The position numbers and the translations under genes were made by a program. From an uncultured Verrucomicrobiae bacterium (lineage in GTDB: Bacteria > Verrucomicrobiota > Verrucomicrobiia > Chthoniobacterales > UBA10450), in NCBI GenBank assembly GCA_963804875.1, contig CAWDRX010000003.1, positions 139,838-203,837 on the forward strand: 64,000 nucleotides of DNA, in the 5' to 3' direction. Under the pieces are notes generated by a model that saw only the letters and a list, made by a program, of their open reading frames with translations, had not been told where the DNA came from and searched no databases. Shown one piece after another: positions 21,228 to 64,000 of the stretch (positions are counted from its first letter, which is position 1; each line of letters begins with the position of its first letter).

Positions 21228-23307
21228 TCACCAAATCCGGGCGCGTTGCTCAGGTGCGATGAACATTTTGTCGCTGGGCTGGATTTTAAAGGCGTCGTAC
21301 CAGACATCCGTGTTTCGAGTCGGACCAATCACACGAAATTGACGAGGGGAATGTGGGTCGCTTACGACCTGCTTTTTAACGTAATCATCGCTGACTTTTC
21401 CGCGCCAGGCTTGCGCCCACCCGAGAAGCACGCGCTGATCGCCCGTGTAACCATCGAGGACTGGCGCCGGCTGTCCTTTGAGCGAAGCACGATAGGCGTC
21501 AAGCGCAAGGGTGAGGCCGCCCAGGTCCGCGATGTTTTCGCCCATGGTCAATTCTCCGTTTACATGGACGCCGGGAATCGGTTCGTATTTTGAGTATTGG
21601 GCGCCTAGCATTTTTGCTCGTGCCTGGAATGTGTCCGCGTCTTTCTTTGTCCACCAGTCGTGCAACGCACCGGATGCGTCGATCTTGCGGCCCTGATCGT
21701 CGAATCCGTGCGTGAGCTCGTGTCCGATGACGCCACCCGCCGCGCCGTAGTTAATTGCGGGATCAGCATCCGCGTCAAAAATCGGCGGCTGTAGAATTCC
21801 CGCCGGAAAAACAATATCCCGCAAACTTCCGTTGTAGGCGTCGTTCGTTTGCGGCGTCATGCTCCAGTCGGTTCGATCAACCGGTTTTGAAAATCGGTCG
21901 GTGTAAAAGTCCCAATCGAGCTGCGCGCAGCGTTTGACGTTGCCGATTAAATCGTCGCCGCGAATGACCAGCTTCGTGTAATCACGCGGATGATCTGGAT
22001 AGCCCACCTTAATCGTGTATGTGTCGAGTTTCTTCAGCGCTTCCTTTTTCGTCTCCGGACCCATCCAATCGAGCTTTTCGATCCTTGCGCGATACGCGGC
22101 TTTTAGATTAGTGACCAGATCCTGGATTTTCTGTTTTGCTTCCGGTGGAAAATATTTTGCGGTGTAAAGCTGACCGACTCCGAAGCCCATCGTTCCGAAG
22201 GTCCCAAAGCGATCTCCAACAAGAAAATCGCCACCGCTGACAGCTGTGATCGCGCGTTTCCAACGCGCCTGCTGTTGCTTCTGACCGGAGAGTGTTTTGT
22301 CGTGTAGCTCGAAGTAAGCGTCGGCGAATGGCTTAGAGAGATATGGCGAGGCGTTATCTGCGATGTGAAATGCCTGCCAGGCCCGAATCGTGTCGATCGG
22401 TGTCTTTGAATACGCGTCAACAATTTTCGGGAAAGGCGCTTTTCTCAGCAACAATGACGCGCGTCAGGTTCGGCATCTTTGCTTCGGCAAGAAATCTGTC
22501 CCACGCGAATCCGGGGACAAACTTCTTCAGATCTTGAAGCGACATCGGATTGTAGATCGCATTGAAGTCGCGCTGTTGCGCCTTTGTCCAGCTGGCCTCC
22601 GCGATTCTGGTTTCGAAATCGACGACCTCTTTGGCGTTTTTGTCAGCGTCAGGCCAGTTCAACAGTTTCAAAACTGTGGCGACATAATTTTGGTAGGCGC
22701 TCTTCTGGGCGGCGAAATCCGGTTTCAGATAATAATCGCGATCGGGCAGACCGATTCCCGCCTGTGTCAGATAGAAAGCGTATTTTTTGGGGTCCTTTAA
22801 ATCGGCGTCGATCATTGGATTGAAGAGAGAAAATTCCAAATCAGTCGTCGTCCGGCCCATCAATGCGGCAAAATCATCGCGAGTCTTAGCATCCTTGAGA
22901 GCGCTCAGTTCAGACTCAATCGGCTTCGCGCCAAGTTGCTCAATCCGCGCTTCGTCCGTGAAAGAGCGGTAAAACGCTCCGACTTTTTCCGCCAGCGTTG
23001 CTGGATTTTCAATCGGTTTCGCGCCAAGCGATTCCATCATCTCACGCAGCCGCTGTTCGGTCAGATCGGTCATTGCGAGCCGGAGCGAGTACGCCGGTTT
23101 GTCCGGAGGAATCTGCGTTTTGTCGATCCAGATTCCGTTGGCGAAACGAAAGAAGTCGTCGCCCGGTTTGGTTGCTGAATCCATTCCGGGCAGATCAAAT
23201 CCCCAGGCGCCGTATTTCAATTTCGTTGGAGGTGTGTCTTCGGCGTGGGCGAGAAGCGGATAGCAGCAGAGAACGGCGAGTAGAAGAATGCGCAACAGTG
23301 AACTCAT
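21228..23307 (-). CDS. M13-family zinc metallopeptidase (PepO/neprilysin-like). Secreted. Split by one apparent frameshift near 22417..22454.
   Basis: ORF 22417..23397 carries the M13 N-terminal domain and a signal peptide (MSSLLRILLLAVL). ORF 21228..22454 carries the catalytic domain with VIGHELTHGFDDQG (HExxH). The two read in different frames and overlap by 38 nt. Confidence 0.7.
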
Positions 23308-23418
23308 AAGATGGAGCGAGACAATAAACGAACAAAGGCAGATTGAGAAATTGGGAAGGCCGGTTCGTTGTATGGCACACCAGAAATTGCGACGCACCAG
23401 CGTTGCAATGTGGCGAAA

Positions 23419-29846: not shown

Positions 29847-31412
<1,566 letters not shown>

Positions 31413-31987
31413 CCGTTAAAAACGTTACCCCGCGGTTGCGGGGAAAGTTTGAAATCCCGCGTGAGCGGGATCGATCTGACTTTCATTACCTGAATCCTCT
31501 TGCGAGCATCCAGGGCTTGTCCGATCTAAATCTTTCATTTCAAAGATGATCGACAGATAACGCACAATTCAATGTTTACTGTCTTTACACCATCGACGGA
31601 TTTCCTGTTGAAATCCACGACCACACTGTCAAAGATCATCCTTCGCGTACACGGCAAAGCCCAACCTCAACAATCATCGACCGCAGAGAATTGGCTTACC
31701 GGGCCAGAGAAGAACACCGACTCCGCTGATGGAACCGGTCCCGCCGTTTCGCGGGATTCGTAAACTAGCAGACTCCCCCAGCGAGTCAAAGGGAATTTTG
31801 CAAACTTTCGATAATTTTAGAATTTGTCGCTATCTTTCTCTGGCACTGCTCACCGCCAAGACACGGATTCCAATATCATCGGCCGGAGAAGCCCACAATA
31901 TTATCCACGATTTCATGCGGCCTGAATTGCCTTGACCTGTCATTTGGTTCCTGATTCGCTCGGTTGCAATCCTCGACACTTCGTAAA

Positions 31988-45574: not shown

Positions 45575-45828
45575 GATTTCTGGACACGACAGCAAGCGAT
45601 CGTTCCAGATCTGCTTCGCATCGGGATACGGACCACGAGTTCTCCTGGCGGATCCGCTGTTGATTGTCGGGCACGACCAATCTGGTGATTGGCCCGCATC
45701 GCGATGGTCAGCGCTGCGTTGCGCGAAAAGATGAAAAAGCTGACGGCATTCATGAACTTGAAAGCCAAGCCCGCCGCGCGTACATCGACGCGACCGTTTC
45801 TCACTCAGAACCCAAAGAAAAAACGTCT

Positions 45829-47010
45829 ATGAAAACAATCATCAAAACAGTCTATCTTGCAGTTATCGCGGTTTCGCTCACTTGCTTTACGGGTTTTCAA
45901 GCTCTCGGCGTTACCCCCCCGCCGGATGGAGGATATCCCGGTAAAAATACCGCTGAGGGTCAGGATGCTCTCTTCGGCCTAACGAACGGCAATGCAAATA
46001 CGGCCAACGGTTTTTCAGCGCTCAAGGCCAATACAAACGGTGACCGGAACACAGCCAACGGAGCGCTTGCGCTCTTTACCAATGTGATCGGCTCCGAGAA
46101 TACGGCCACCGGTTACGCAGCGCTCCTTTTCAATACCGGCTCTTGGAACACGGCCAACGGTGTTGCGGCACTGCACAGCAACGCAACTGGAGCCAACAAC
46201 ACGGCCATTGGTCTACGGGCGCTTCAGGACAATTTCAGCGGATCCAAAAACACGGCGAGCGGCGTTGGTGCGCTTGGTAGCAACACAACGGGTAGCAATA
46301 ACACAGCCGACGGTTTTCACGCCCTTCCTAGCAACACGACCGGCAGTTTCAACATCGCCCTGGGTAATAACGCTGGCAGCGGCGTAAGCACGGCTGACGA
46401 TGTTATTTGCATTGGAGCCGTGGGTGACGACGTGAGCCACAGCTGCTACATCGGCAACATTGTCAATCAACCGTCTCCTGCAGGGCTGGCAGTTTTCGTC
46501 AATTCCGATAACAAACTTGGGACGATTATGTCATCCAGGCGGTTTAAGGAAGACATTAAGCCAATGGACAAAGCCAGTGAAGCGATCCTGTCGCTTCAAC
46601 CAGTAACGTTCCGATACAAAAAGGACTTTGATCCGACAGGAACTGCGCAATTTGGTCTGGTCGCCGAGGACGTTGCCAAAGTGGATCCTGGTTTGGTTGT
46701 GCGCGACAAGGAAGGAAAACCGTACAGCGTGCGTTACGAGCAGGTGAACGCAATGTTGCTTAACGAGTTCCTTAAAGAGCGCAAAAAAGTTGAATCTCAA
46801 CAGGAGAAAATTGCGCAGCTAAAATGTGACGCGACAAAACAGGAAGCCGCCAGCATGGAATTGAAGTCAACCGTCGTTCAGCAGCAGAAAGCGATTGAGG
46901 TTCTCTCCGCTCAACTGCAAGAACAGGCGGTGCAAATCCAAAGAGTGAGCGCACAGCTCGCTGCTTCAAACGGCGAACTTGCGCCGAAAATGGTTTCGAA
47001 TCACGATTAG
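45829..47010 (+). CDS. Secreted tail-fibre-like protein. N-terminal NTA(x)G...AL repeats, a C-terminal peptidase-S74 (endosialidase intramolecular chaperone) domain, and a coiled coil.
   Basis: Signal peptide MKTIIKTVYLAVIAVSL. About 12 repeats of NTANG/NTATG. SSRRFKEDIKPMD...LQPVTFRYKKDFDPTG...GLVAEDVAKVDPGLV matches the S74 autoproteolytic chaperone domain. Confidence 0.65.
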   Translation: MKTIIKTVYLAVIAVSLTCFTGFQALGVTPPPDGGYPGKNTAEGQDALFGLTNGNANTANGFSALKANTNGDRNTANGALALFTNVIGSENTATGYAALLFNTGSWNTANGVAALHSNATGANNTAIGLRALQDNFSGSKNTASGVGALGSNTTGSNNTADGFHALPSNTTGSFNIALGNNAGSGVSTADDVICIGAVGDDVSHSCYIGNIVNQPSPAGLAVFVNSDNKLGTIMSSRRFKEDIKPMDKASEAILSLQPVTFRYKKDFDPTGTAQFGLVAEDVAKVDPGLVVRDKEGKPYSVRYEQVNAMLLNEFLKERKKVESQQEKIAQLKCDATKQEAASMELKSTVVQQQKAIEVLSAQLQEQAVQIQRVSAQLAASNGELAPKMVSNHD

Positions 47011-51290: not shown

Positions 51291-53549
51291 TTACCGCGGC
51301 GGCGGGCGCAGTCGCGGAGTCGGGCGTGGTCTCGGTGTTGCTCTTGGGGTAGCGGTAGGTGTCGGTGTAGGCGTGGCTGTTGGGGTTGAGGTTGGAGTCA
51401 CTGTTGGAGTAGCGGTAGGCTGAGGCGTTGCAGTAGGTGTAACCGTCGGAGTTGGAGTAACTGTCGGTGTGGCAGTTGGAGTTGGTGTGGGTGTTCCCGA
51501 GGGCTGGCCAGTCATGATTTGCACAACACCTTCGCTCATGGCGCTGGCCCAAAGATTGCCGTTGCCATCGAATTCCACTGCTACCACCTGCCAGTGAGTC
51601 AATGGCGAATTCTCCGGAGTGTAATGAGTCCAGGTCGTGCCATTGAAGGTGCTGACGCCGCCGGTGTATGGAAACGTGCTGCCTTGATTGCTTGCGATAG
51701 CGATAAGTCCATCGCTTGAACGTCGCGCCACATCAGAGACAACGGTGCCGGGCATTCCCGTATTGGCCTGGTTGTAAAGCGTCCAAGTCGTACCGTCGAA
51801 TCGCGCGAACCCCTCATAAGTGCCCACCCAGATGCCGCCGTTGGGATCCGCCTCCACGTCTGTCATTCCGGCGCTCGTAAGAGGTGTATTGGTCGTGTCG
51901 TATAAGGTGAAAGTGGTGTTGTTTCCCGCTTCAAATTTCCGCAGACCATATTCCGAGGCCACCCACAAGTTGTTGTTGGTATCGACCGTCATGGATCTTA
52001 CGTTGTTGGGGCTGTAGCTATAGCCACCCGGACTGAGCGTTACGTGATTCCAGTTAATGCCGTCGAACCAGAAAACGCCCGAGCCACCAGAGCCCACCCA
52101 TGTCGTGCCTGCGCGTTTAGTGATAGCATAGTGGCCAGAAGTATCGAGGTTTGAGTTCTGCCAATTCCAAAAGCCGGTAAATTGACCCGTGGCAGAATCC
52201 CACCGGCCGACGCCGTTGCCGCCCATCCAGAAGATGCCGCCGGTGTCTTCGAAGACCGAATACATCGGCTCATTTCCCGCCCACGGATAAGGTTCCGAGA
52301 GATCATTGTGATTCCCCCAGTTACGCCAGTGCGTGGCAGCATCCGGGGCCCCGTCACTGCCTAACATGCGTGAAAGCCCGCCTTCTCCACAGGCGAACCA
52401 CATGTTGCCGGTACTGTCGCGTTTGATTCGATCGATGAAGTAATCCGGCAAGCCGCTGTTGAAGGTGTTCATGCGCGAAAGCAACTGGCCGTTGACAGTG
52501 TAATGGCGGACTGTGCCGAGCGTGCCGTTGCCACCGTAATTGCTGATCCAAATGTCTCCGTTAGGCCGGCCAATCACACTTCGCGGGATATTGTCCGCAT
52601 CCACAAAGAAGACCGGATTGTTGTTGATCATTTTGTAAATGCCGCCGTACCAGGTGGAGACGTAAACGACGCTGTCCCGATCTGTGCCCAAACCGGTTAT
52701 CGTCATAGTGCCGCCCACCTCCGGCCAGTTCTGCCAACTCGATCCATTCCATTTGAAGAGGCCGTACTGCGAGCTGGTGACCCAGATGTTGCCCTGGACG
52801 TCCGCGAGCATTGCGTCCATTTGGAAGAGCGAATCGTGCAGTACCCAGGAAGTGCCGTTGAATTCCGCCATTCCGCCGAGCACCGAGTGCGTCAGCCAGA
52901 CGTGATCGTTAGCGCCGACGATTACGGCGTTCACATTGTACCACGGCGGAGTCCACGGTAATTCCTGGCCCACTCGATACTGAGTCCACACGTGGGTTGT
53001 CGGATTGAACCGAAACAGTGCGCCGTTTGATGACTGCACGCTGACGTTGGTTAGCCACAGGTTGCCGTGACTGTCCAGCGCGAGCGAGTGGACGTCATTG
53101 AGGATTAATGGCGAGTTGGCCGGAGTGTAAGTGAACCACATCTGCTCTTCTGTCGGCGCCGCCGGATCAAATCGCGTTAAGCCACCGTCGCTTGCGATCC
53201 AGATTACACCACCCGCCCCGAACGCCATGTCATTGATGTAAGGCGAGGGAATCGGATGATGCACGCTCGACCAAACCTTCCACGCGCCGGTGTCGAACCC
53301 GCCGCCGGGCAATGGGTGATGAGCGAGTTGATCGGCCGATAGCATCCCCAGAGCAGCTTCGCCCCAAAAATAAAACCGCCCGGCGGCCCATAAATTGCCT
53401 GCCGGATCAAATTTCATGACCCTCACTTCTTCACCCGGCACGCCAGTCGTGCTCGGCTTAACGATATTGAACTGGGGTAAGGTCTGCGCGCCGGCGCTCG
53501 CCCAGAACACAGTCAATAAGACGAGACTGAACAATCGAGCGTACTTCAC
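51291..53549 (-). CDS. Secreted two-component-regulator-type beta-propeller (Reg_prop-like ligand-binding sensor domain) protein with a C-terminal Pro/Thr tail that ends Arg/Pro-rich.
   Basis: Signal peptide. Repeated NxW(I/V)G(T/S)xxGL blades. Tail ...[17 protein letters not shown]...RATPRPRPTPRLRPPPR. Confidence 0.65.
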   Translation of the reverse strand: MKYARLFSLVLLTVFWASAGAQTLPQFNIVKPSTTGVPGEEVRVMKFDPAGNLWAAGRFYFWGEAALGMLSADQLAHHPLPGGGFDTGAWKVWSSVHHPIPSPYINDMAFGAGGVIWIASDGGLTRFDPAAPTEEQMWFTYTPANSPLILNDVHSLALDSHGNLWLTNVSVQSSNGALFRFNPTTHVWTQYRVGQELPWTPPWYNVNAVIVGANDHVWLTHSVLGGMAEFNGTSWVLHDSLFQMDAMLADVQGNIWVTSSQYGLFKWNGSSWQNWPEVGGTMTITGLGTDRDSVVYVSTWYGGIYKMINNNPVFFVDADNIPRSVIGRPNGDIWISNYGGNGTLGTVRHYTVNGQLLSRMNTFNSGLPDYFIDRIKRDSTGNMWFACGEGGLSRMLGSDGAPDAATHWRNWGNHNDLSEPYPWAGNEPMYSVFEDTGGIFWMGGNGVGRWDSATGQFTGFWNWQNSNLDTSGHYAITKRAGTTWVGSGGSGVFWFDGINWNHVTLSPGGYSYSPNNVRSMTVDTNNNLWVASEYGLRKFEAGNNTTFTLYDTTNTPLTSAGMTDVEADPNGGIWVGTYEGFARFDGTTWTLYNQANTGMPGTVVSDVARRSSDGLIAIASNQGSTFPYTGGVSTFNGTTWTHYTPENSPLTHWQVVAVEFDGNGNLWASAMSEGVVQIMTGQPSGTPTPTPTATPTVTPTPTVTPTATPQPTATPTVTPTSTPTATPTPTPTATPRATPRPRPTPRLRPPPR

Positions 53550-54249: not shown

Positions 54250-54659
54250 ATGGAATCTGCCGCGTCCCCGTCCGATCCAGCTGACGTCGAGTCGATCCAC
54301 GCGATCATCACGGCGGCTTACGACGAAATTTTAGGCCCGACTGGAAAGAAGGGCGATTGGGATCGCGAGCGCTCTTTGTACTTTCCAGGTGCACGTTTCC
54401 AACCGCGATGAAGGCTGAAGGCCCGCCTTCAACAGGCTCCGGCGTGGCAGTAGAGAAGGTCGGTCTCGCGCCGCAGATTTTGGACATCGACGGATTCATC
54501 GCGCGGGTCGAACCGTTCTTTAAGGAGAATGGCTTCTACGAAAAGAATCGCGCGGTGCAGCGAACAATTTGGCAACAACGCCCGTGTCTGGAGTATTCCG
54601 ATTGCACAGCGCTACCCACCCGCCGAAACGCGAATCGCGCGATCGATTGCCTGAGTTAA
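54250..54659 (+). CDS. Possible small NTF2-like protein, interrupted by a frameshift. Low confidence.
   Basis: Frame 1 reads MESAASPSDPADVESIHAIITAAYDEILGPTGKKGDWDRERSLYFPGARFQP then a stop. An adjacent frame continues as ...KAEGPPSTGSGVAVEKVGLAPQILDIDGFIARVEPFFKENGFYEKNRAVQRTIWQQ... Confidence 0.3.
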
Positions 54660-55109
54660 CTCGAGCAAATTGGCCCTGGTCGCCGCACCACCGAAGCGTT
54701 TGATAATGACGCCATTGCGATTAATGACATACACATTGGCGACGCCCTTTCGATAATCAAACGCACGCGCAACCGAGCCGTCCCAGTCGAGCATTACCGA
54801 GTAATTAAACTGCGCACGAAACCCGAATTGGACCATACCTTGTAACGGTCGCGGTACCGAGGAAACATCGGCCACGCCATCGATATCGATGTCTTTGCCA
54901 AAGCTGTGATAGACATGCGCGATCCAGGGTTCAAGCTGCTGGGAACCTTTCTGATCGGCCAGCGTCATGACCGTAACTTTCGCTTTCGGAAAACGGTAGG
55001 TCCGCGATGTGCCATGTTGATCGCGCAGTTCGAAATCGGCCAGCTTCCCGGCGGAAACAGAGGTAGCCAAGATTACCGACCCGAAAAGTGCGAGGATGAA
55101 AAATCTCAT
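54612..55109 (-). CDS. Secreted thioredoxin-fold (redoxin/TlpA-like) protein lacking the CxxC cysteines. Last gene of the carotenoid operon.
   Basis: Signal peptide MRFFILALFGSVILATSVSAG. FELRDQHG...KAKVTVMTLADQKGS resembles a redoxin, with the active-site Cys replaced. Its start overlaps the GT2 stop (ATGA). Confidence 0.5.
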   Translation of the reverse strand: MRFFILALFGSVILATSVSAGKLADFELRDQHGTSRTYRFPKAKVTVMTLADQKGSQQLEPWIAHVYHSFGKDIDIDGVADVSSVPRPLQGMVQFGFRAQFNYSVMLDWDGSVARAFDYRKGVANVYVINRNGVIIKRFGGAATRANLLELTQAIDRAIRVSAGG

Positions 55110-56227
55110 GTCACCCCGACCGGCGAATAAACTCGTCCCTTCCATGCGGTGCTGTTTCGCCCGTACCCTACGGCGAAGGCAAACCATTGAATCGCAACCA
55201 GCAAGGTCACGCCGACAGGATGAAGCAGGGCACCGAGAAGAGATTGGCGGAAACGAATGACTGAAATCAGCCGCGGCACCAGAGCAGCGAAGACAGCGAT
55301 TGCTGCCAGAACCACCGGGACGCGCGACTTGGCGGCGGCCAAAAGCAAAAATGGAAGGACCTGCCCACTCAACAGCAAAATAGTAGCTGGAAGAATCAGT
55401 TGCCGGGAGCCGAGGCCTTCGTGGGCATTCTTGGCAAAACCATGCCATACCTCATCCGCACGCCGATACATCCGGCACGAAAACGTGTCGGTCGCATCGA
55501 ACAGATCTGTCGCGTAACCGCGCGAACGAAATAACCGCGCAAGACGAAGACCATCGTGAAGCGTTCCGGCTATGCCGGCATGCCCGCCTGCGTCTTCGTA
55601 GGCGTCGCGCTTGACCGCGATGATTTGACCGCATGCCGCGGAAAATTTCGGGTCGCTGCTGCGTCGCATTCTGTCCAGGGAAAGGAATCCGAGCAGCACA
55701 AAATGGATAAGCGGCACGATTAGTTTTTCCATCAGCCCCTCCGTTTCCTGTCGAGGCACGCCGCTGATGAGCGCCGCTTTGCCTTCCTCGACGAATTGCG
55801 CAAGCCGCGCCAAAGAATCGGAACGCGATACGCGTACGTCCGCATCCATGAAAATGAGGAGTGGATGACGCGCGAGTTGGGCCAGTTGATGGCAGGCGAA
55901 GTTTTTTCCGCACCAGCCCGCGGGCAAAAATCCGGCGGCTTCGAGCCGGACCCGGCTATCAGCAATCGCAAACTCGCGAACAATCTCTGCGGTGCGATCG
56001 GTCGAGGAGTCATCAAGCACGATCACTTCAAGATCGACATCTTCGCTGCGGAGCACCGAGCGTAGTGCGGCTGTGATGTTGGGTTCTTCGTTCCGCGCCG
56101 GAATCAGTACGGAACAACCCGCGCCGGTTGCTTTGCGGACTGATAACTGCCGATAGAGCGACAAATTGCGAAGAAACAACGCCGCAGGCAAGATTGAAAG
56201 CACGCAGCTGATCACGACGATCGTCAT
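55106..56227 (-). CDS. Family-2 glycosyltransferase, CrtQ/CruC-like (carotenoid glycosyltransferase), membrane-anchored.
   Basis: GT2 motifs VLIPARNEE, VIVLDDSSTD and FMDADV (DxD). C-terminal TM helices. Operon context with CrtI-family genes. Confidence 0.7.
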   Translation of the reverse strand: MTIVVISCVLSILPAALFLRNLSLYRQLSVRKATGAGCSVLIPARNEEPNITAALRSVLRSEDVDLEVIVLDDSSTDRTAEIVREFAIADSRVRLEAAGFLPAGWCGKNFACHQLAQLARHPLLIFMDADVRVSRSDSLARLAQFVEEGKAALISGVPRQETEGLMEKLIVPLIHFVLLGFLSLDRMRRSSDPKFSAACGQIIAVKRDAYEDAGGHAGIAGTLHDGLRLARLFRSRGYATDLFDATDTFSCRMYRRADEVWHGFAKNAHEGLGSRQLILPATILLLSGQVLPFLLLAAAKSRVPVVLAAIAVFAALVPRLISVIRFRQSLLGALLHPVGVTLLVAIQWFAFAVGYGRNSTAWKGRVYSPVGVT

Positions 56228-57036
56228 TATCGAATCGACTCCGGTTGATGTTCACCTACGAATTGTCTGCCGCTCATCCAGGCACGCAGGCGGCGCAATG
56301 TATCGTAAATCAGATTTCCTCCACTCCGGCCGCGGTTGATCGTTAGCCAGTCTCGCGGATCACGACGACACGAACCAATGGTCAGTTCCTCTTGTGTGCT
56401 CTCCAAAGCCCCGGCCAGAAGACGGCTCCATTCGTCCGCATCGCGACGGGATCGCCTGTCGCTCATCAGTGGCCGACCGAACGATAAAAGGACTTCCGGG
56501 CGCGACTCAGCCCAGAAAGGATATTCAATGGCGAGGGGCAAAAATGCCACGTCGGACAGGCGGGTCGCCAGCGCCGCCAGACCGGGCTGCAACTGAAGGG
56601 GGCGTTCGCGCACATCAGCAAACCGTCCCTGGGGCGTAAGCCACAGCATGTTGCGCGACGAAGAGAGCAGGGCCCGACTCGCCCGCAAGAAAGTCACCGC
56701 ACCGCGAACGGTGTGCTGTTCGACTCCAAAAAAACCGAGATTTTTGAAAAATCGGTAGCGCTCGATCATGGCCGCATCGATTGGAGCAAACGAATCCCGA
56801 TCGTCGAAAAACTGCCGCGAAAGGAACAGACAAACCAGCGGATCCCACCACGAAGCGTGATTAAGATAAACAACTGTGGGCTGCGTAAAAATTCGCGGCC
56901 GTCCCATTTTCAGGATTCGAATCCGATGGAAATGACGCCGCAGATAAGACCGATTATACGCCGAGAACAGCCGTAACCACGTCGTAGAAACGGAGGGATG
57001 CAGTGCCGAAGATCGATCCTGAAGTTTGGCTAACAT
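56227..57036 (-). CDS. Lysophospholipid-acyltransferase-family enzyme (CruD-like carotenoid glycoside acyltransferase candidate).
   Basis: H(X4)D motif NHASWWD. Its stop overlaps the GT2 start by one nucleotide (TAATG). Confidence 0.7.
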   Translation of the reverse strand: MLAKLQDRSSALHPSVSTTWLRLFSAYNRSYLRRHFHRIRILKMGRPRIFTQPTVVYLNHASWWDPLVCLFLSRQFFDDRDSFAPIDAAMIERYRFFKNLGFFGVEQHTVRGAVTFLRASRALLSSSRNMLWLTPQGRFADVRERPLQLQPGLAALATRLSDVAFLPLAIEYPFWAESRPEVLLSFGRPLMSDRRSRRDADEWSRLLAGALESTQEELTIGSCRRDPRDWLTINRGRSGGNLIYDTLRRLRAWMSGRQFVGEHQPESIR

Positions 57037-58574
57037 ATTGCCATCTCTTCTGCCTTCGGTGGGCGCTCCGCTATGCCGGAATCATCGTCGAGCGCATGGG
57101 CGGCGATCCAACCCGACATGAGCACCATCGGCATGCCGGGTCCCGGGTGCGCCGCGCCGCCGGTGAGGTAGAGACCGCGCAGATCGGGGCTGCGATTACC
57201 CGGTTTGAATGCACCGAAAAATTTCCCGTGGCTGGCGAGTCCGTAGATCGCGCCGTTCAAAACATGGTAGCGCTCGTGTATGTCCTGCGGTGTCAGCGCC
57301 TCTTCGAAAACGATGCGCGATTCGATATCGGGCATCTGTCCCGTGCGTTTGAGCTTCTCTAAAATGACGCGCCGGTATCCGGGCAGCATTTTTTTCCAAT
57401 CATGGTGCGGCCGCAAATAGGGAGTGTGAACCAAAACGTACAGCGCTTCGCTACCAGCCGGCGCGGTGCCGGATTCGGTGCAACTTGTGGCGGCCAGGTA
57501 ACAGGTCGGGTCGGGCGCGGGCTCGCCCTTTTTGTAAATCCACTCGAATTCTTTGCGAGGATCGCGGCTGAACACAAAATCGTGATGGGCAAGATGTTCG
57601 TAACGTTTGTTGAGGCCGAGGTAGAGCACCACCCCGGAACAGGCTGGTTCATATTGACGACGCCGGGCAAAAGCTTCGCTGGCCGCGCCGTTCATCAATT
57701 CGCGATGAGTGCGGACGGAGTCGCAGTTAGAAACGACCGCGTCGAACGAAATTTCTCCATCTTCATCCGTGCGAACGCCTGTAACCTGGCCGTTGTCAGA
57801 CAGAATTTCTTCGACCTTTGTGTTTGTGAGGAATTCCACGCCAAGTTCGGTGGCAAGTTTTGCAAGAGCCTCCGGCACCGCGCGAGTACCGCCGATCGGA
57901 TACCAAATTCCTTCATCGGTTTGCATGTGCGCAATTCCGCAAAGAATGGCGGGTGATCCATAGGGCGACGATCCGACGTATTGGGTGAAATGATCGATCA
58001 TCTGGGCGACGCGTGGATCTGGAGAAAATGAGCGCACCGCGCTGGCGACGGATCGGCCCATACGCATCGCGAGTACGTCCCCGATCATTTGGGGATCGAA
58101 CGACGAGTTCCATTCGAACATGTCCCGCAAACCGCCGATCGATTTGTAGAAGAAATGGCGATCAGAAATTGCGTGCAGTCGCTCGCTGAACGCGATGAAA
58201 TCGCGATAACGCGCACCGGAGTTAGTGCCGGGCGCAAAGTGGTCGAGCGTCTGCGCCATCTCGTTCGGGTTTTGAGCAAGGTCGAGGACGGAGCCGTCAT
58301 CAAAGAAACAGCGCCACTGTGGATCGAGCCTAACGAGTGCCAGATAATCCTCCATCCGCGCCCCGGCTTCGTTAAAGATTCGGCGCAGAATCGAAGGCAT
58401 GGTGACGATAGTCGGTCCCATGTCGAAGCGGAAGACGTCGTTGCGGAGCTGGGCCGCTTTTCCCCCTAGCCAATGATTGCGTTCGAATAAAACAACTTTG
58501 TGTCCCCGCGCCGCCAGAACGCAGGCCGCGGAAAGGCCGCCAAGGCCGCCACCAATGATTCCGACCTTTTTCAT
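57030..58574 (-). CDS. FAD-dependent CrtI/CrtN-family carotenoid desaturase/oxidase.
   Basis: N-terminal MKKVGIIGGGLGGLSAACVLA (dinucleotide-binding) and the C-terminal phytoene-desaturase signature. 515 aa from the chosen start. Confidence 0.8.
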   Translation of the reverse strand: MKKVGIIGGGLGGLSAACVLAARGHKVVLFERNHWLGGKAAQLRNDVFRFDMGPTIVTMPSILRRIFNEAGARMEDYLALVRLDPQWRCFFDDGSVLDLAQNPNEMAQTLDHFAPGTNSGARYRDFIAFSERLHAISDRHFFYKSIGGLRDMFEWNSSFDPQMIGDVLAMRMGRSVASAVRSFSPDPRVAQMIDHFTQYVGSSPYGSPAILCGIAHMQTDEGIWYPIGGTRAVPEALAKLATELGVEFLTNTKVEEILSDNGQVTGVRTDEDGEISFDAVVSNCDSVRTHRELMNGAASEAFARRRQYEPACSGVVLYLGLNKRYEHLAHHDFVFSRDPRKEFEWIYKKGEPAPDPTCYLAATSCTESGTAPAGSEALYVLVHTPYLRPHHDWKKMLPGYRRVILEKLKRTGQMPDIESRIVFEEALTPQDIHERYHVLNGAIYGLASHGKFFGAFKPGNRSPDLRGLYLTGGAAHPGPGMPMVLMSGWIAAHALDDDSGIAERPPKAEEMAIC

Positions 58575-58578
58575 GAGT

Positions 58579-59862
58579 TTATTTTTTCTGTCTGTACTTG
58601 TTAACGAGGGCGCCAATGAAATTGCGAATCGCCCCGAAGCGATCCCGGCCGCGCCCGTGTGCCGCCCGGATGTAGGAAAGGAAAAGCCTCGCATCCTCGA
58701 TTTCGGGTTTGTCGAAATGTCGATGTGAGTTTCCATATCTCGTCGCGACGACATGTGGAAATGTCATTTCGAGCAACCCTTCATCGCCGCGCGTGCTCCC
58801 AAATCCGCTCGCATTCACTCCGGTGAACGGCATACGCGGATCGGCGGTCGGGACGATGAGATCGTTGATGACAACGAATCCAGTCTTTATGCGGCTGGCA
58901 ATGGCGCGAGCCCGCGGGACGTCACGCGAGAAAATCGACGACCCAAGGGCGAAATTGGCGGAATGAACTTTATCGAGGGCACCCTGTTCATCTTCAAAGA
59001 TTTCCAATGGAAGCGGCGCGGTACCGGCAAGCGTCAATCTCGCCTGGAGATTTCCGGCGATTGATTTCTCGGCGATCAGGCGCCGCGGAGCGATGCATGT
59101 CCCGCCATTATTCAGACGCGCCCCGAAATTCAATGCGCGGACAACCAGATCAAGATCGGCGTCTGCAAAAACGATGACGGCATCTTCGCCCGAGAGTTCC
59201 ATTACAGAGGGCGTATTGGTCCTTGCGAGCTTAGCGAGGAGATCGCGCCCGTTTTTGGAGGAGCCGGTGAAAATGACTTTGTCCACGCCGCTACGAACGG
59301 CGTCGTGGGCCGCCGCGACGCTCTCGTCTAAAACGGTGAGCAGCGCGGGATCGAGTCCTGCCTCGCGAGCTAGCCTAACGAATAGGAATGCGACGTTTCG
59401 TGTGCCTGGCGCAGGCTTGAGCAGGACGGCGTTGCCGGCCACAAGCGCGTGGAGCGAATGAACAGCCGGAAGAAAAAGGGGATAATTTCCCGGACCAATC
59501 ACCAGCACCAGGCCGAATGGCTGGCGTTGCACTTCAAATAAAGCGCCCTGCATCCAAAATGGACGTCCTCTTTTGCCGCAACGACGGGGAGCGAGGACGC
59601 GAGCCGCGCTTTCTTCCAGCCACCTGCATGCATCGGCGAGCGGAACGATTTCGGAAACGAGCTTCTCGGACAACGGACGATCCCAAACCATTGCAGCAGC
59701 AGTTGCGAGTGTATCGGCGCGCTCCGCAATGAGACGACGAAGTTCGCGGACGAAACGCACACGTTCGGCGATTGGCTTGAGCCCCCAGCTTGTCTGAACC
59801 GCACGGGCTTTGGCGTAAAGGTCGTTTACCTTTTCCGCACGCTGATCGATAACTGCGTGCAT
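58579..59862 (-). CDS. Aldehyde dehydrogenase (carotenoid-aldehyde dehydrogenase candidate, CrtNc/AldH-like).
   Basis: Catalytic MELSGEDA (Glu) and GGTCIAP (Cys) motifs. Its start codon overlaps the upstream stop (TGATG). Confidence 0.8.
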   Translation of the reverse strand: MHAVIDQRAEKVNDLYAKARAVQTSWGLKPIAERVRFVRELRRLIAERADTLATAAAMVWDRPLSEKLVSEIVPLADACRWLEESAARVLAPRRCGKRGRPFWMQGALFEVQRQPFGLVLVIGPGNYPLFLPAVHSLHALVAGNAVLLKPAPGTRNVAFLFVRLAREAGLDPALLTVLDESVAAAHDAVRSGVDKVIFTGSSKNGRDLLAKLARTNTPSVMELSGEDAVIVFADADLDLVVRALNFGARLNNGGTCIAPRRLIAEKSIAGNLQARLTLAGTAPLPLEIFEDEQGALDKVHSANFALGSSIFSRDVPRARAIASRIKTGFVVINDLIVPTADPRMPFTGVNASGFGSTRGDEGLLEMTFPHVVATRYGNSHRHFDKPEIEDARLFLSYIRAAHGRGRDRFGAIRNFIGALVNKYRQKK

Positions 59863-61407
59863 CAGGCAGTCTCCAGATTCATTGGCGCAATTTGTGCTAT
59901 CGGTTCACGCGCGGTGGAATGAGCTGTTGCGACTCCCATGTCCGTTAGAAGCAAACGAGAGCTGATCCGCGCGGATTCGAAAATCACAGGCAGCCCACTG
60001 CCCGGATGGGTGCCGCCGCCAACAAGGTAAATACCATCGACATCCTCAAAACGATTGTGCGGTCGAAGGTGCAGCATCTGATCGAGGCTGTGGGCGAGAT
60101 TGAACGTCGCGCCCTGGTGGATCTCGTATTTCGTGTCCCAATCGGCCGGCGTGATGACGCGCTCGAAACGGATGCGCTTTTCGATGTCGGTGAAGCCGGC
60201 TTTCGCGATTTGGCGCAGCATCTTCGCGCGAAAACACTCGCGCTCGCGTGACCAATCGACGTTCGGATGCTGGTGCGTGACCGGAACTAGCACGTAGAGC
60301 GTGCTCATGCCCCGTGGTGCGAGCGTCGGATCGGTGACGCACGCGTTCTGCACGTAAAATGACGGGTCGTCGGACAGGACGTGCTCGTCTTCGATCTCGT
60401 CAAGGTTCCGCGCGTAGTCGGCGGCGATGTGAATGGTGTGGTGCGGCAGATCGAACGCGCCGTCGACGCCGAGATACATCATGAAGGTCGAGCAGGAGAA
60501 TTTCTTGCGCGCAATCTTGCGATCGGTCCAACGACGACGAAGCCGATCGGGCACGAGGCGCTTCATGGCGCGGGCGAAGTCGGCGTTCATCACAATCGCG
60601 CTCGCCTTTTCTATTCCCGCCGCTGTGCGCACGCCGACCGCGCGTCGTCCTTCGAAAAGGACTTCTTCGACAGGGTGTTCACACAGATCTCCACACCGAG
60701 GCGCTCGGCTACGCGCGCCATCGCCGCGGTCACCGCGGCGCAACCACCGATGGGATGGAACACGCCGTATTCGTATTCGAGAAACGAGAGGATCGAGAAC
60801 AGGCTCGGGCAGTGAAATGGCGACATGCCGAGGTATTTGGATTGGAAAGAAAACGCCAGGCGGATTCGTGGATCGGCAAAGAAACGGCGTGAGATAAGTG
60901 TCGATCGATTGATGCGGCCGAAGCATCGGGAGCATCTTGAGCAGACGGGTATTGCAGCAGATCCTGCCAACCGAGAAACGGCGTCTCAAGGCATGGCTCC
61001 ATGCGAGCGAGCTTGATCCGATTTTCGTTTAGGAACCGTCGAAACCCAGGCGCGTCACCCGGCGCGATCGCGGCGATCTGTTGTTCCATGCGCGCGATGT
61101 CCGGCGTCGCATTGAGCTCGCCACCCTGACCGAAGATGATGCGGTATTGCGGATCGAGCCGCACCATTTCCACTTCGGTCCGGAGGAAGCTGCCGGCTGC
61201 GGCGAAGATTTCTTCGAGCACGCGCGGGTAAAGGAAAAACGTCGGGCCGAGATCGAACTTAAAGCCGTTCGCCTCGATCGATGAGGTGCGTCCGCCGATG
61301 GTCGGGAGACGTTCAATGATCTTCACTTTCACCCCCGCCGAGGCAAGGAGGATGGCCGAGGCGAGGCCGCCGGGACCGGCGCCGATGATAATGACATCGT
61401 GTTTCAT
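59862..61407 (-). CDS. Second CrtI/CrtN-family desaturase/oxidase. It reads through three frames, with apparent frameshifts near 60970 and 60650.
   Basis: N-terminus MKHDVIIIGAGPGGLASA in ORF 60730..61407. Middle YGVFHPIGG...VAERLGVEI segment in ORF 60611..60970. C-terminal part in ORF 59862..60989. Total about 515 aa. Confidence 0.65.
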
Positions 61408-61432
61408 AGAGTAATTGCCAACCGGGAAGAGG

Positions 61433-61654
61433 TCAGAATTTTGTTTTCACGCCGCAAGCGCGGAATGCGCACCAGCCCTGCACCGCTTCAAACGCGAGGA
61501 ATGCCGAAGTGACAGTTAGTCCAACCGCGATTGCGGTAGATTTCGGCAAGGACACGCCGGCAGCGATGACCAAGGCTACTGCTCCGCCTGCGCGAAAGAG
61601 CCGCGCTTTATTGGCGATGTTGGAGATCAAACGGTTCTGTCTGTCTTTTTTCAT
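61433..61654 (-). CDS. DUF2892 (YgaP-like) small membrane protein.
   Basis: 73 aa. RLISNIANKARLFRAGGAVALVIAAG... pattern. Confidence 0.5.
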   Translation of the reverse strand: MKKDRQNRLISNIANKARLFRAGGAVALVIAAGVSLPKSTAIAVGLTVTSAFLAFEAVQGWCAFRACGVKTKF

Positions 61655-61807
61655 AGGTGTTACTTCAGTTCTGGAGTTCTCCCCTGAACTACTCCGCTGA
61701 AAGCGTGGTTGTTGGGGCTTTGGCTAAATCGATCGGGTCTGGACTCAGCGGCCGTTTGAAGAAGGAAACCGAACGATTGGAAATGCGCCGTCCGCCGGAT
61801 TCGGGAT

Positions 61808-61924
61808 TCACGCTGCCGTCGAGTCTTTTTGAACCTCCGCAAAGTCCGCAGCCGCCAGGAGTCCCTTCGCGACGATTCCCGTCACGGCGAGGCCGAAGCA
61901 AAAAATAGGGAAAAGAAATTCAAA
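61808..61924 (-). CDS. Possible 39-aa hydrophobic peptide (MFEFLFPIFCFGLAVTGIVAKGLLAAADFAEVQKDSTAA).
   Basis: Its ATG lies 2 nt after the stop of the upstream 64-aa membrane ORF. Below the ORF-track size cut-off. Confidence 0.25.
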   Translation of the reverse strand, partial: FEFLFPIFCFGLAVTGIVAKGLLAAADFAEVQKDSTAA

Positions 61925-61929
61925 CATAT

Positions 61930-62124
61930 TTAGTCTTCTTTGGTTTGGCTGATGGCGTTGCCTAGGAGGACAAGACGAACGCCGACCCAGAGGATCAGAA
62001 TGCTGGGAACCCAGAGACCGACGAACACGCCGTAATCGCGGTTCACTAGGAACCAGAGGGAGACGCTGGCAAGGAGGCTCAGAGCTGAGGCCCAAAGAAA
62101 AGGATGATCGACTTTATTAAACAT
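61930..62124 (-). CDS. Small two-TM membrane protein (64 aa). First gene downstream of the AT-rich promoter region.
   Basis: ORF track. Two hydrophobic helices. Confidence 0.35.
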   Translation of the reverse strand: MFNKVDHPFLWASALSLLASVSLWFLVNRDYGVFVGLWVPSILILWVGVRLVLLGNAISQTKED

Positions 62125-62164
62125 AATCGTGAGTGAGTTGGGTGGTTGTGTGGTGGAGCGAGAC

Positions 62165-62300
62165 TAACAAACGTCTAATATATGTATAGGATTTGATTAG
62201 CTTGTCAATGATTTGTTCATATTTAAATTCTCAGCTCGATTTTCATTGGTTAATTCCTACGAACTTCCAATATTTCAGACCTCCTACTTGCGCTCTGTCT
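62165..62300. promoter_or_regulatory. AT-rich divergent promoter/operator region between the carotenoid operon and the CarH-like gene. Contains direct repeats GATTTGATTA and GATTTGTTCA 20 bp apart and a TTGTCA -35-like hexamer.
   Basis: Local AT content far above the window average. Repeats at 62190..62199 and 62210..62219. Confidence 0.35.
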
Positions 62301-62327
62301 GAGTTATGTCTAGATTCTAGCCGTCAA

Positions 62328-63272
62328 ATGCCGGACGCCCATCACTCGATCAAAGCTGCCTCGCGGATAACCGGGCTCTCGCCTCATCTCATTCGCATTT
62401 GGGAGAGGCGTTATGGTGCCGTGGCACCCGAACGAACCGACACGAATCGCCGTCTTTATTCCGACGCAGAGATTCAGCGGCTAAACTTGCTGCGCTTGGC
62501 CACTGGCGCGGGGCACAGCATTGGCAACATCGCGAAACTGCCGTTGGGCCGCCTCAAGTCCCTGCTAGCAAAAGCGGGGGTTGGCGAATCCGGAGTGCCG
62601 CGCACCAAAATGGCTTCGTCACCGGCGAAAGGCTTTCGTGACGCCAGCCTGGCTGCTGTCGAAAAACTGGACGCTCAATTATTTGAGGAGACCTTGGGCA
62701 AGGCGGTCGTCGCCCTGGGCCACCAAGGTCTGTTGCGACAGGTTGTGGGTCCACTGGCGCAGACGATTGGCGAACTTTGGCGGACCGGTGTGCTCACGGC
62801 GGCGCACGAGCATTTTTTCACCGCGGGGTTGAAAGTGTTCCTCGGCCATTTGTCGGGACAATTTGCCGTGCCCGCAAACGCCCCTCGTATTGTCGTCGCC
62901 ACTCCGGCCGGACAATTGCACGAGCTTGGCGCCGTCATCGTGAAGGACGCTGCCGCACAGATCGGCTGGCACACCACTTATCTGGGCGCCAGTTTGCCGG
63001 CCGCGGAAATTGCCGGCGCTGCGGTGCAAAGTAGAGCTGCCGTGGTGGCTCTGAGTATTGTCTATCCGGAAGACGATCCCGATCTTGTTCGGGAACTCAT
63101 TAGCCTTCGGCGTTTCCTCCCGCCGGAGGTGAAGATTCTGGCCGGAGGCCGGGCAGCGTCGGCTTATTCTGAACCGCTGCTGCGCATCGGGGCCGTGATG
63201 ACGGAAAACATCGAGGAATTTTGCAACCAGCTCGATAAGCTACGCCGGTCATCGAAGGCTAAATCCGCGTGA
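62328..63272 (+). CDS. MerR-family regulator with a C-terminal cobalamin-binding domain (CarH/LitR-like light-responsive regulator).
   Basis: MerR HTH SIKAASRITGLSPHLIRIWERRYG. B12-binding_2 helix bundle GELWRTGVLTAAHEH. Rossmann B12 motif GQLHELGAVIV ... ALSIVY ... LAGGRAA. Start set at MPDAHHS. Confidence 0.75.
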   Translation: MPDAHHSIKAASRITGLSPHLIRIWERRYGAVAPERTDTNRRLYSDAEIQRLNLLRLATGAGHSIGNIAKLPLGRLKSLLAKAGVGESGVPRTKMASSPAKGFRDASLAAVEKLDAQLFEETLGKAVVALGHQGLLRQVVGPLAQTIGELWRTGVLTAAHEHFFTAGLKVFLGHLSGQFAVPANAPRIVVATPAGQLHELGAVIVKDAAAQIGWHTTYLGASLPAAEIAGAAVQSRAAVVALSIVYPEDDPDLVRELISLRRFLPPEVKILAGGRAASAYSEPLLRIGAVMTENIEEFCNQLDKLRRSSKAKSA

Positions 63273-63282
63273 GGATTCGCAA

Positions 63283-63720
63283 TTCAAGCGCACAACGTGG
63301 CTTCAACGTCCGGTTTCCGAGGTCTTTCCGTTTTTCGCAGACGCCGCAAATCTCGAACTGCTTACGGCTCCCGGGCTCCATTTTCGCGTCCTGACTTCTC
63401 GGCCGATCAAATTCGGCTGGGAACCTTGATTGATTACCGGATTCGCGTTCACAGGAATACTGTTGCGCTGGCAAAGCGAAATCACAGCATGGGACCCCGC
63501 CCCGCAGCTTCGCCGACGAACAGCGCCGCGGGCCCTATCGATTCTGGCGGCACGAGCATAAATTTGTAGAACGCGACGGCGGGACAGCCGTTTTCGCCGA
63601 GGTGCAATATGCCGTGCCCTTTGATTTTCTGACGCACCGATTATTTGTGCGGCCGGACATCGAGCGAATCTTCGATTTTCGCGAACAAAAGATGCGCGAA
63701 CTTTTTCCTAGCCCTAGCTA
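63283..63720 (+). pseudogene. SRPBCC-family (START/Bet v1-like) protein gene. It reads through four frames (three indels) and has no in-frame start codon.
   Basis: Family segments lie in successive frames: ...VFPFFADAANLELLTAPGLHFRVLTS, then GTLIDYRIRV, then ILLRWQSEITAWDP, then FADEQRRGPYRFWRHEHKFVERDGGTAVFAEVQYAVPFDFLTHRLFVRPDIERIFDFREQKMRELF and a stop. Confidence 0.5.
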
Positions 63721-64000
63721 AAACTGCAGACGCGTTTTTCCTGTTCGTTTCGCGATCGCGCCGAGCCGCTTCGCGGCGACGATCGTTAAAATAGCAACCT
63801 CATGAGGCCTGTCACAGCTTCGCAACCGGGAGCTTGCTGCGAGGACATACTTCTGGACCTCGCCGGTGGCTGCATTCGACAGTTCGGACAAAAATTGGAT
63901 TCGTTGGGGACACTTGAAGTGCGCAAGATGACCACGAGCGCAATTGCTTAGCTCGGTTTCCGTCGCGGTCGCGCCTGCTTTTAAGACGACAAACGTGAGA

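Follow-up and report, generated by a model that had tools for sequence, protein, structure and literature searches.

A predicted CarH/LitR-type pigment regulon in Chthoniobacterales

We describe a locus within a 64-kb window of contig CAWDRX010000003.1 (64,000 nt; positions 139,838 to 203,837), from an uncultured Verrucomicrobiae bacterium of the order Chthoniobacterales, in which a gene for a MerR-type regulator with a predicted cobalamin (B12)-binding domain is divergent from an operon for carotenoid-type enzymes. We read it, with a probability of roughly 0.8, as a Chthoniobacterales version of the CarH/LitR-controlled photoprotective pigment regulon. A first-pass annotation had proposed a CarH/LitR-like regulator beside an operon for an acylated glycosyl carotenoid acid. 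That core stands, strengthened by motif and operator evidence, and places the locus with a well-known kind of system (CarH/LitR carotenogenesis, with a staphyloxanthin-like pathway). The open reading frame (ORF) map and domain searches bear out the divergent regulator and the tightly packed operon, gene by gene and position by position (Table 1). The new element is RDX, our name for the Cys-less thioredoxin-fold protein encoded by the last operon gene; it is a modestly novel accessory associated with the family 2 glycosyltransferase (GT2) of the operon.

Regulator and predicted operators

The regulator matches the Pfams MerR_1 (PF13411, 59.3 bits, cutoff 21.6) and PF00376 (34.2 bits). The cobalamin-binding domain called in the first pass also survives a profile search, both B12-binding_2 (PF02607, 27.2 bits, cutoff 23) and B12-binding (PF02310, 53.3 bits, cutoff 32.1) scoring above cutoff. 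The best PDB matches are the Thermus thermophilus CarH/LitR structures 5C8D and 3WHP, with an alignment that spans residues 127-290 of 5C8D. Two features, a Wx9EH motif and a lower-axial His, jointly define CarH homologs and separate them from the B12-independent CarA, which is without Wx9EH (PMC8156234). We found both. The Wx9EH motif reads W-RTGVLTAAH-EH, its W, E and H being invariant in 23 non-identical orthologs, and the lower-axial His lies in GQLHELG, which aligns with Thermus GERHEIG and whose His and Gly are likewise invariant in the 23 orthologs. The closest solved relative, the two motifs and the direct-repeat operators over the promoter (below) all agree with the first-pass description of this protein as CarH/LitR-like.

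To define the operators we used regulator-operon spacers from 22 non-redundant orthologous loci, scoring hexamers with at most one mismatch from TAGACA. Pairs of such hexamers at exactly +11 bp occur 48 times in the 22 spacers, where every other spacing from 6 to 20 bp occurs at most four times and shuffled sequences give a mean of 0.1 and a maximum of 2; the loci are related and do not count as 22 independent trials, but their spacers are otherwise barely alignable. Placement is also repeated across loci: 15-30 nt from the regulator start codon, over a -35-like TTGACA, and 14-25 nt further downstream. The element TAGACA/TAAACA-N5-TTGACA is kept across loci, the distant L064 included. When the whole window was searched for the operator pair with up to two mismatches, three matches were found, two in the ~200-bp spacer and the other inside the 16S gene.

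The published recognition unit of CarH is an 11-bp direct repeat, nAnnTnnACAn (PMC8156234), and the TAGACA repeat fits it in silico. Because an 11-bp ACA repeat is that published unit, the natural reading of the arrangement would be promoter occlusion at the operon together with autoregulation of the unit formed by the regulator gene and the SRPBCC-family gene that follows it. On the regulator strand, TTGCGC-N17-TAGATT (62287..62330, +) can be recognized by eye, ending 11 nt before the ATG, at a place where the promoter scan made no call; the regulator mRNA may be leaderless or nearly so, and operator pair 1 lies between the TTGCGC and TAGATT hexamers.

Pathway enzymes

The two CrtI/CrtN-family genes reported in the first pass both belong to that family by TIGR02734, although the upstream one, crtI-like 1, is not the single ORF that had been supposed and is spread over three frames (below). 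For phmmer comparisons we used Pantoea CrtI, verified against PDB, and Staphylococcus aureus CrtN and CrtP, whose sequences are unverified. The product of crtI-like 2 scored 316 bits against this CrtP, 249 against the CrtD-type structure 4REP and 213 against Pantoea CrtI (4DGK). IMG applies the label 'diapolycopene oxygenase' to its orthologs in two clusters (four of the five named members in one, two of two in the other). Thus crtI-like 2 is CrtP-like as judged by automated naming and pairwise similarity. An ortholog of crtI-like 1 has Pantoea CrtI as its best solved relative (4DGK, 263 bits, versus 167 for 4REP), a similarity that places crtI-like 1 with CrtI/CrtN.

No squalene or phytoene synthase was found in the window, either by Pfam scans of essentially all long ORFs or by tblastn with S. 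aureus CrtM, a query essentially identical to PDB 2ZCO/4E9U; the first-pass remark that CrtB/CrtM lies outside the window is thereby upheld. With the same tblastn query, none of the 64 loci retrieved (948 kb) showed a homolog of either synthase within 10 kb. Its absence from all 64 fits a precursor that is shared with other pathways, such as squalene, better than a crtB-crtI cluster for a C40 product. The gene crtB normally adjoins crtI.

In Planctopirus limnophila, the genes crtN, crtP and aldH together with crtQ and crtO were shown genetically to convert squalene into acylated glycosyl esters of 4,4'-diapolycopenoic and -dioic acids (PMC9907078). The enzyme set of our operon equals this five-gene set (PMC9907078), which agrees with the first-pass prediction of an acylated glycosyl carotenoid acid. 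CrtN and CrtP specify C30 production and have been reported in Verrucomicrobia, where CrtN occurs together with sqs/hpnD (PMC9907078). A verrucomicrobium, Rubritalea squalenifaciens, makes xylosyl esters of the C30 diapolycopenedioic acid (PMC3967232). From this gene set we consider a C30 pathway rather probable.

Conservation of the locus

We searched with RDX and then scanned one genome per species, which yielded 48 loci, almost all from Chthoniobacterales or other Verrucomicrobiota. Using the window proteins as tblastn queries, we found the gene order crtI1-aldH-crtI2-AT-GT-RDX (AT, acyltransferase; GT, glycosyltransferase) in ~35 species-level genomes of Chthoniobacterales/Verrucomicrobiota; the aldehyde dehydrogenase (ALDH) gene keeps its position in all loci, the divergent regulator is present in ~24, and the DUF2892 gene in ~16 at 36-52% identity. 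The gene for the small membrane protein sp1 has copies in nine loci (59-77% identical), located either 5' of the operon or directly after RDX, and sp2 follows sp1 in L023, L058, L062 and L032. A DUF2892 gene also lies beside the regulator in L064. An SRPBCC homolog follows the regulator in at least nine loci and is found beside RDX in Hydrogenedentota. The closest full cluster, L065, is 82% identical at the nucleotide level and matches the window in gene content and gene lengths, with no sp2 homolog called. The window organism is thus a typical member of a group in which this arrangement is the rule. The first pass had called a CarH-controlled C30-type pathway unusual for the phylum, and this we do not find: the same cluster is present in ~35 genomes, CrtN/CrtP are reported in Verrucomicrobia (PMC9907078), and the C30 esters of Rubritalea are known (PMC3967232). 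An exact-match query with the ALDH of the window returned nothing, and the source genome was absent from every collection searched. In our literature searches, no publication dealt with this cluster in Chthoniobacterales.

Some loci depart from the single-copy pattern. One metagenome-assembled genome (MAG), MFD00962.bin.1.43, has two full operon copies on different contigs (L017 and L029), and another, MFD02134.bin.1.37, has a full operon and a lone second RDX gene lacking a signal peptide (L033 and L034); either paralogy or bin contamination could explain these. In L044 (10001..11988) and L054 (108..2127), RDX lies directly beside a CrtI-1-like gene, with no ALDH, CrtP, acyltransferase or glycosyltransferase detected nearby, a reduced arrangement.

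Frameshifts in the desaturase and SRPBCC genes

The TIGR02734 matches of crtI-like 1 fall in three ORFs in three frames, covering profile positions 1-175, 168-252 and 238-499 and summing to >500 bits. Translation and tblastn with an intact ortholog trace the frame path 1 to 2 to 3 to 2. Alignment to L066, a soil-metagenome contig with 95% DNA identity, and to L065 places three single-base events: one surplus C each at 60954 and 60887, and a C missing from the C-run at 60676. Repair of these three bases gives a 514-aa ORF without stops, and the nearest database relatives of the repaired protein are intact, also 514 aa, and 94-95% identical to it. Substitutions relative to L066 are spread evenly along the gene.

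The SRPBCC gene has four 1-nt indels within ~230 bp, near 63281, 63409, 63453 and 63496, as placed by DNA alignment to L058, L055 and L062. Its tblastn high-scoring segment pairs lie in three frames, and an intact ortholog matches PF03364 and PF10604. The other operon genes have no indels; within the locus, all seven 1-nt indels are confined to the desaturase and SRPBCC genes. Elsewhere in the window, the M13 metallopeptidase gene at 21228..23397 (-) is split into two overlapping ORFs by a frameshift near 22417-22454, one ORF holding positions 1-251 of Peptidase_M13_N and the other positions 251-381 plus the catalytic domain. A small gene at 54250..54659 (+) is apparently split as well, to judge from the translations alone, the frame at 54250..54411 continuing in 54357..54659.

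We scanned metagenomes for the stretch between the first two indels of the desaturase gene. The exact 29-mer had no match, and a degenerate pattern returned solely relatives at 75-79% nucleotide identity. The Logan contigs L004-L006 (92-96% nucleotide identity) cover no more than the part from crtP to the RDX stop codon, where they terminate. Taken as it is written, the operon would be unable to make pigment.

RDX, a Cys-less thioredoxin-fold protein

The first pass had pointed to a Cys-less redoxin-fold gene that is no known member of the pathway, and this gene, as yet without a name, proves to be a genuine and conserved part of the operon, found in ~35 loci and in gene fusions. An AlphaFold2 (AF2) model of RDX, from 35 homologs, has a pLDDT of 88 and a pTM of 0.81. 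Its nearest Foldseek matches are ResA, TlpA and DsbE (E 1e-9 to 1e-7, TM 0.6-0.7, ~20% identity). The window protein has no Cys at all, no Cys column is conserved in the 35 homologs, and the CxxC position reads ADxKGSxQ. Conservation is found instead in 22 residues invariant across the 35 sequences, with the acidic/aromatic motifs DQ, ADxKG, DIDGVAD and MLDW. By sequence and predicted structure, RDX has the thioredoxin fold and is not a TlpA/ResA/DsbE member by function. No Pfam or NCBIfam family matched it (Redoxin scored 18.6 bits against a cutoff of 26.6). A profile search gathered 1108 clusters (50% identity) at E<1e-3, of which 214 reach E<1e-30.

The RDX start codon overlaps the GT2 stop (ATGA), and RDX is the last operon gene in ~35 loci. 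In-frame GT2-RDX fusions are represented by four clusters (P0154 and P0242, and the fragments P0218 and P0239), in which the GT2 C-terminal WKGRxY is joined to the RDX domain through a linker followed by a hydrophobic helix. In L064 such a fusion is divergent from a CarH-like regulator, alongside a TAAACA-N5-TTGACA element and a DUF2892 gene. We assign RDX to the system because of the start/stop overlap, the conserved position and these fusions, and the topology of the fusions implies that RDX would lie on the periplasmic side of the membrane GT2. In three Hydrogenedentota MAGs, RDX sits between an SRPBCC homolog and tetrapyrrole genes resembling hemC, hemD/cobA and hemB (judged by eye from ORF N-termini). 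That RDX and SRPBCC travel together across phyla suggests that they form a functional pair.

Locus map and neighboring genes

The features of the locus are collected in Table 1. The operon junctions read, in order, TGATG, TAA-ACTC-ATG, ATGTTAG (a 7-nt overlap), TAATG and ATGA; four of the five overlap, in keeping with the first-pass observation of overlapping stop and start codons. Its remaining gene calls for the operon are likewise recovered: ALDH by PF00171, the LPLAT acyltransferase by a borderline PF01553 match, GT2 by PF00535, the Cys-less protein by its AF2 fold, and, ahead of the first carotenoid gene, two small membrane peptides (sp1 and sp2) and a DUF2892 protein near the PF11127 cutoff. 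An ortholog of the acyltransferase passes the PF01553 cutoff, with the IMG label '1-acyl-sn-glycerol-3-phosphate acyltransferase'. GT2 has sub-threshold NCBIfam matches to HpnB and CruG; a hopanoid-related reading of the best of these, HpnB (142 bits against a cutoff of 379), was rejected, the neighbors being carotenoid-type enzymes. The locus has no cobalamin riboswitch or other Rfam element.

Table 1. Features of the regulator-operon locus (window positions)
Feature	Position	Strand	Remarks
carH/litR-like regulator, 314 aa	62328..63272	+	MerR winged helix-turn-helix, four-helix-bundle and Rossmann B12-binding domains; start is ATG 62328
SRPBCC (Polyketide_cyc) gene	63269..63721	+	GTG start overlaps regulator stop; four 1-nt indels
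Operator pair 1, TAGACAtaactCAGACA	62296..62312	-	two hexamers 11 bp apart; 16-32 nt 5' of regulator ATG
Operator pair 2, TGAACAaatcaTTGACA	62203..62219	-	the conserved -35-like TTGACA of the predicted operon promoter forms the second hexamer
Operator pair 3, TATACAtatatTAGACG	62172..62188	-	covers the -10/+1 region, 14 nt past the -35
sp1, membrane protein of 64 aa with two helices	61930..62124	-	first gene of the operon
sp2, membrane peptide of 39 aa with one helix	61808..61927	-	
DUF2892/YgaP-like transmembrane protein, 73 aa	61433..61654	-	PF11127 23.4 bits, just below cutoff 25.3
crtI-like 1 (crtI/crtN-type desaturase)	59862..61407	-	first pathway enzyme; frameshifted; TIGR02734
Aldehyde dehydrogenase, 427 aa, aldH role	58579..59862	-	PF00171 237 bits
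crtI-like 2 (crtP-type carotenoid oxygenase), 514 aa	57030..58574	-	TIGR02734 399.6 bits
LPLAT/PlsC-type acyltransferase, 269 aa, crtO/cruD role	56227..57036	-	PF01553 22.3 bits, cutoff 23; HX4D motif NHASWWD
Membrane GT2 glycosyltransferase, 373 aa, crtQ role	55106..56227	-	PF00535 81.8 bits
RDX, 165-aa thioredoxin-fold protein without Cys, secreted or anchored	54612..55109	-	signal peptide; last gene of the operon

The small gene at 54250..54659 (+) is convergent with RDX and overlaps its 3' end, and has no Pfam match. Past RDX, beyond the 3' end of the operon, 51291..53549 (-) encodes a 752-aa secreted protein that combines 'two component regulator propeller' repeats with a long C-terminal tail rich in Pro and Thr. 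At 29857..31419 (-) lies a complete 16S rRNA gene; the 64-kb window contains neither a 23S nor a 5S gene, and the rRNA genes are apparently unlinked. The intact 3025-aa ORF at 631..9708 (+) resembles a cyclic beta-1,2-glucan synthase (Cgs/NdvB-like), having a glucoamylase-like domain together with the supersandwich and catalytic domains of GH94. At 45664..47010 (+) is a 448-aa protein that joins a Peptidase_S74 domain to a SlyX-like coiled coil. Peptidase_S74 is the intramolecular chaperone of endosialidase and tail-fiber proteins, and here this phage-tail-fiber-type module has a chromosomal setting.

Discussion

The mechanism of the CarH family is established (reviewed in PMC8156234), and by extension from it the regulator, bound to adenosylcobalamin (AdoCbl), would oligomerize in the dark and occupy the tandem 11-bp TAGACA-type repeats over the -35 and -10/+1 regions of the operon and just 5' of its own gene. 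Light would photolyse AdoCbl, the oligomer would fall apart, and both divergent units would be derepressed. The backbone (squalene or diapophytoene) would be made elsewhere in the genome. By homology, the desaturase would convert this C30 backbone to diapolycopene or diaponeurosporene, the CrtP-type oxygenase would form a terminal aldehyde that ALDH would take to the acid, the membrane GT2 would esterify the acid with a sugar, and the LPLAT acyltransferase would acylate that sugar. RDX would be a periplasm-facing, non-redox partner of GT2, and our guess is that it binds, handles or positions the glycolipid or its head group.

Several points weigh against this reading. Light dependence, B12 binding and pigment are all predicted here from sequence. 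The regulator clade has Gln for the acidic residue of (E/D)xH, giving QxH, and Arg in place of the His that in Thermus CarH becomes the upper ligand after photolysis; the top NCBIfam match, with full-length coverage, is the CarH equivalog NF052513, at 98.8 bits against a cutoff of 400. Because of these departures and a score so far below the cutoff, we classify the regulator, by sequence, as a distant CarH/LitR family member and not an equivalog. The low equivalog score, the QxH and the lack of the His beside the Trp would also suit a B12-binding MerR protein that senses no light, whether it reports B12 availability or acts like CarA or a class II/III LitR with another partner or chromophore, and LitR classes with other chromophores or partners do exist (PMC9758184). 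We nevertheless hold such a regulator to be quite improbable, since Wx9EH and the lower His, together the published criterion for AdoCbl-dependent CarH (PMC8156234), are both present and invariant, and since the target is a carotenoid operon with an operator of the CarH direct-repeat type. A sigma-70 scan of the operon strand found no consensus promoter, and our promoter call for the CarH/LitR-type regulon thus rests on the conserved TTGACA. Nor is RDX strictly carotenoid-specific, three Hydrogenedentota MAGs having it without crt genes within 10 kb. Finally, crtI-like 1 scores equally against CrtN (267 bits, unverified sequence) and CrtI (262 bits), and its IMG label is 'phytoene desaturase'. 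The first pass had proposed sorting the two desaturase-like genes between CrtI and CrtN/CrtP; this succeeds for crtI-like 2, which goes to CrtP, and not for crtI-like 1, whose 267 versus 262 bits make no split, so that we infer C30 from crtI-like 2 and the gene set. One could propose instead that crtI-like 1 is a phytoene desaturase fed by crtE/crtB elsewhere, and that the CrtP-like enzyme, ALDH, glycosyltransferase and acyltransferase build a C40 acid glycoside ester; its IMG label, a score to CrtN no better than to CrtI, and the 263-bit match of its ortholog to Pantoea CrtI as best solved relative would all be compatible. We think a C40 product unlikely, given that crtI-like 2 is nearest to CrtP and its orthologs are named diapolycopene oxygenase, that crtB is missing from all 64 loci although it normally stands beside crtI, that CrtN/P specify C30 and CrtN is reported in Verrucomicrobia (PMC9907078), that the complete five-enzyme set has been characterized for C30 acids only (PMC9907078), and that a verrucomicrobium with C30 acid xylosyl esters is known (PMC3967232).

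Two further objections concern whether the locus works and whether RDX belongs to it. Real indels would mean a colorless organism, because the crtN knockout of P. limnophila is colorless (PMC9907078); the desaturase and SRPBCC genes would then be recent pseudogenes in a dead cluster of an unpigmented strain. The concentration of seven 1-nt indels in two genes of the light regulon speaks for such decay. Opposed to it, the indels come with neither stop codons nor deletions nor an excess of substitutions; the shifted stretches match intact relatives as closely as the sequence outside them does; three or four independent indels in ~250 bp are unlike neutral decay; the M13 gene is also split, and 54250-54659 apparently so, as in error-prone assemblies; and several related long-read MAG loci, such as L012 and L014, give fragmented tblastn matches. 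A dead cluster is a minority possibility that we take seriously. Sequencing or assembly error seems the likelier source of the desaturase and SRPBCC indels, because they are clustered and single-base, with no other damage, because close relatives are intact, and because unrelated genes are split too. As for RDX, a passenger or a decayed redox enzyme that plays no part in the pathway would be expected to look as RDX does in having no recognizable catalytic residues and no Pfam family, and in occurring without crt genes in Hydrogenedentota and as a second copy in one MAG. It would hardly be expected to overlap the GT2 stop with its start, to keep the same position in ~35 loci, to hold 22 invariant residues in 35 sequences, or to be fused to GT2 in four independent clusters, and we regard the passenger interpretation as very improbable.

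If RDX does belong with GT2, a more specific proposal can be offered, tentatively and with the odds still well against it in full. RDX may represent a hitherto unrecognized, non-redox thioredoxin-fold family (>1000 clusters at 50% identity) whose members serve the carotenoid glycosyltransferases of double-membrane bacteria as a periplasmic subunit or domain. With its N-terminal helix as an anchor beside GT2, it might take over or position the glycosylated carotenoid at the inner membrane's outer face, perhaps an initial step on the way to the outer membrane, and with the small membrane proteins sp1, sp2 and DUF2892 and the lipid-binding SRPBCC protein it might make up a light-induced pigment-lipid module. 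If true, such a pigment-lipid handling module is missing from the textbook C30 pathway, which was defined in Firmicutes.

The locus extends known systems to soil Verrucomicrobia of the order Chthoniobacterales, which are abundant and poorly cultured. The operator consensus, TAGACA at an 11-bp phase, can be used to predict light regulons of Chthoniobacterales. The link between GT2 and RDX, from synteny and fusions, marks one small protein with a possible role in making or placing carotenoid glycolipids in the envelopes of diderms, to our knowledge a step that nobody has assigned. The frameshifts make pathway presence/absence calls from this sequence unsafe without a check of the reads.

Comparison with known systems

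The regulator resembles the CarH/LitR repressors of T. thermophilus, Bacillus megaterium (LitR/CarH) and Myxococcus xanthus (CarH) in its MerR winged helix-turn-helix and B12-binding domains, its Wx9EH cap and its lower-axial His. As in those systems, the gene is divergent from carotenoid genes, and ACA-containing 11-bp direct repeats overlap the promoter. It differs from the model proteins in having only ~20-30% identity to them, in QxH, and in the Arg that replaces the His next to the Trp. The operators here form three separated repeat pairs, not one block of three or four, the regulator gene is predicted to be co-transcribed with an SRPBCC gene, and the phylum is Verrucomicrobiota.

The operon shares the same five downstream enzyme types with hpnCDE-crtN-crtP-aldH-crtQ-crtO of P. 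limnophila (PMC9907078) and with the staphyloxanthin cluster crtOPQMN of S. aureus, and, as in a squalene route, the backbone synthase lies outside the cluster. In contrast to both of those clusters, the gene order is different, all genes are translationally coupled in one operon, and there are the extra members sp1, sp2, DUF2892 and the predicted periplasmic RDX. The acyltransferase is of PlsC/LPLAT type, like the CruD of the first-pass annotation. RDX itself shares with ResA, TlpA and DsbE(CcmG) their fold and an N-terminal signal or anchor; unlike them it has neither CxxC nor any other Cys, its conserved residues are acidic/aromatic, and it is tied genetically to a glycosyltransferase rather than to cytochrome maturation. 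The nearest likeness in product is R. squalenifaciens, a verrucomicrobium whose C30 carotenoid acid glycosyl esters (PMC3967232) are the product class predicted here, in an organism of a different order, Verrucomicrobiales.

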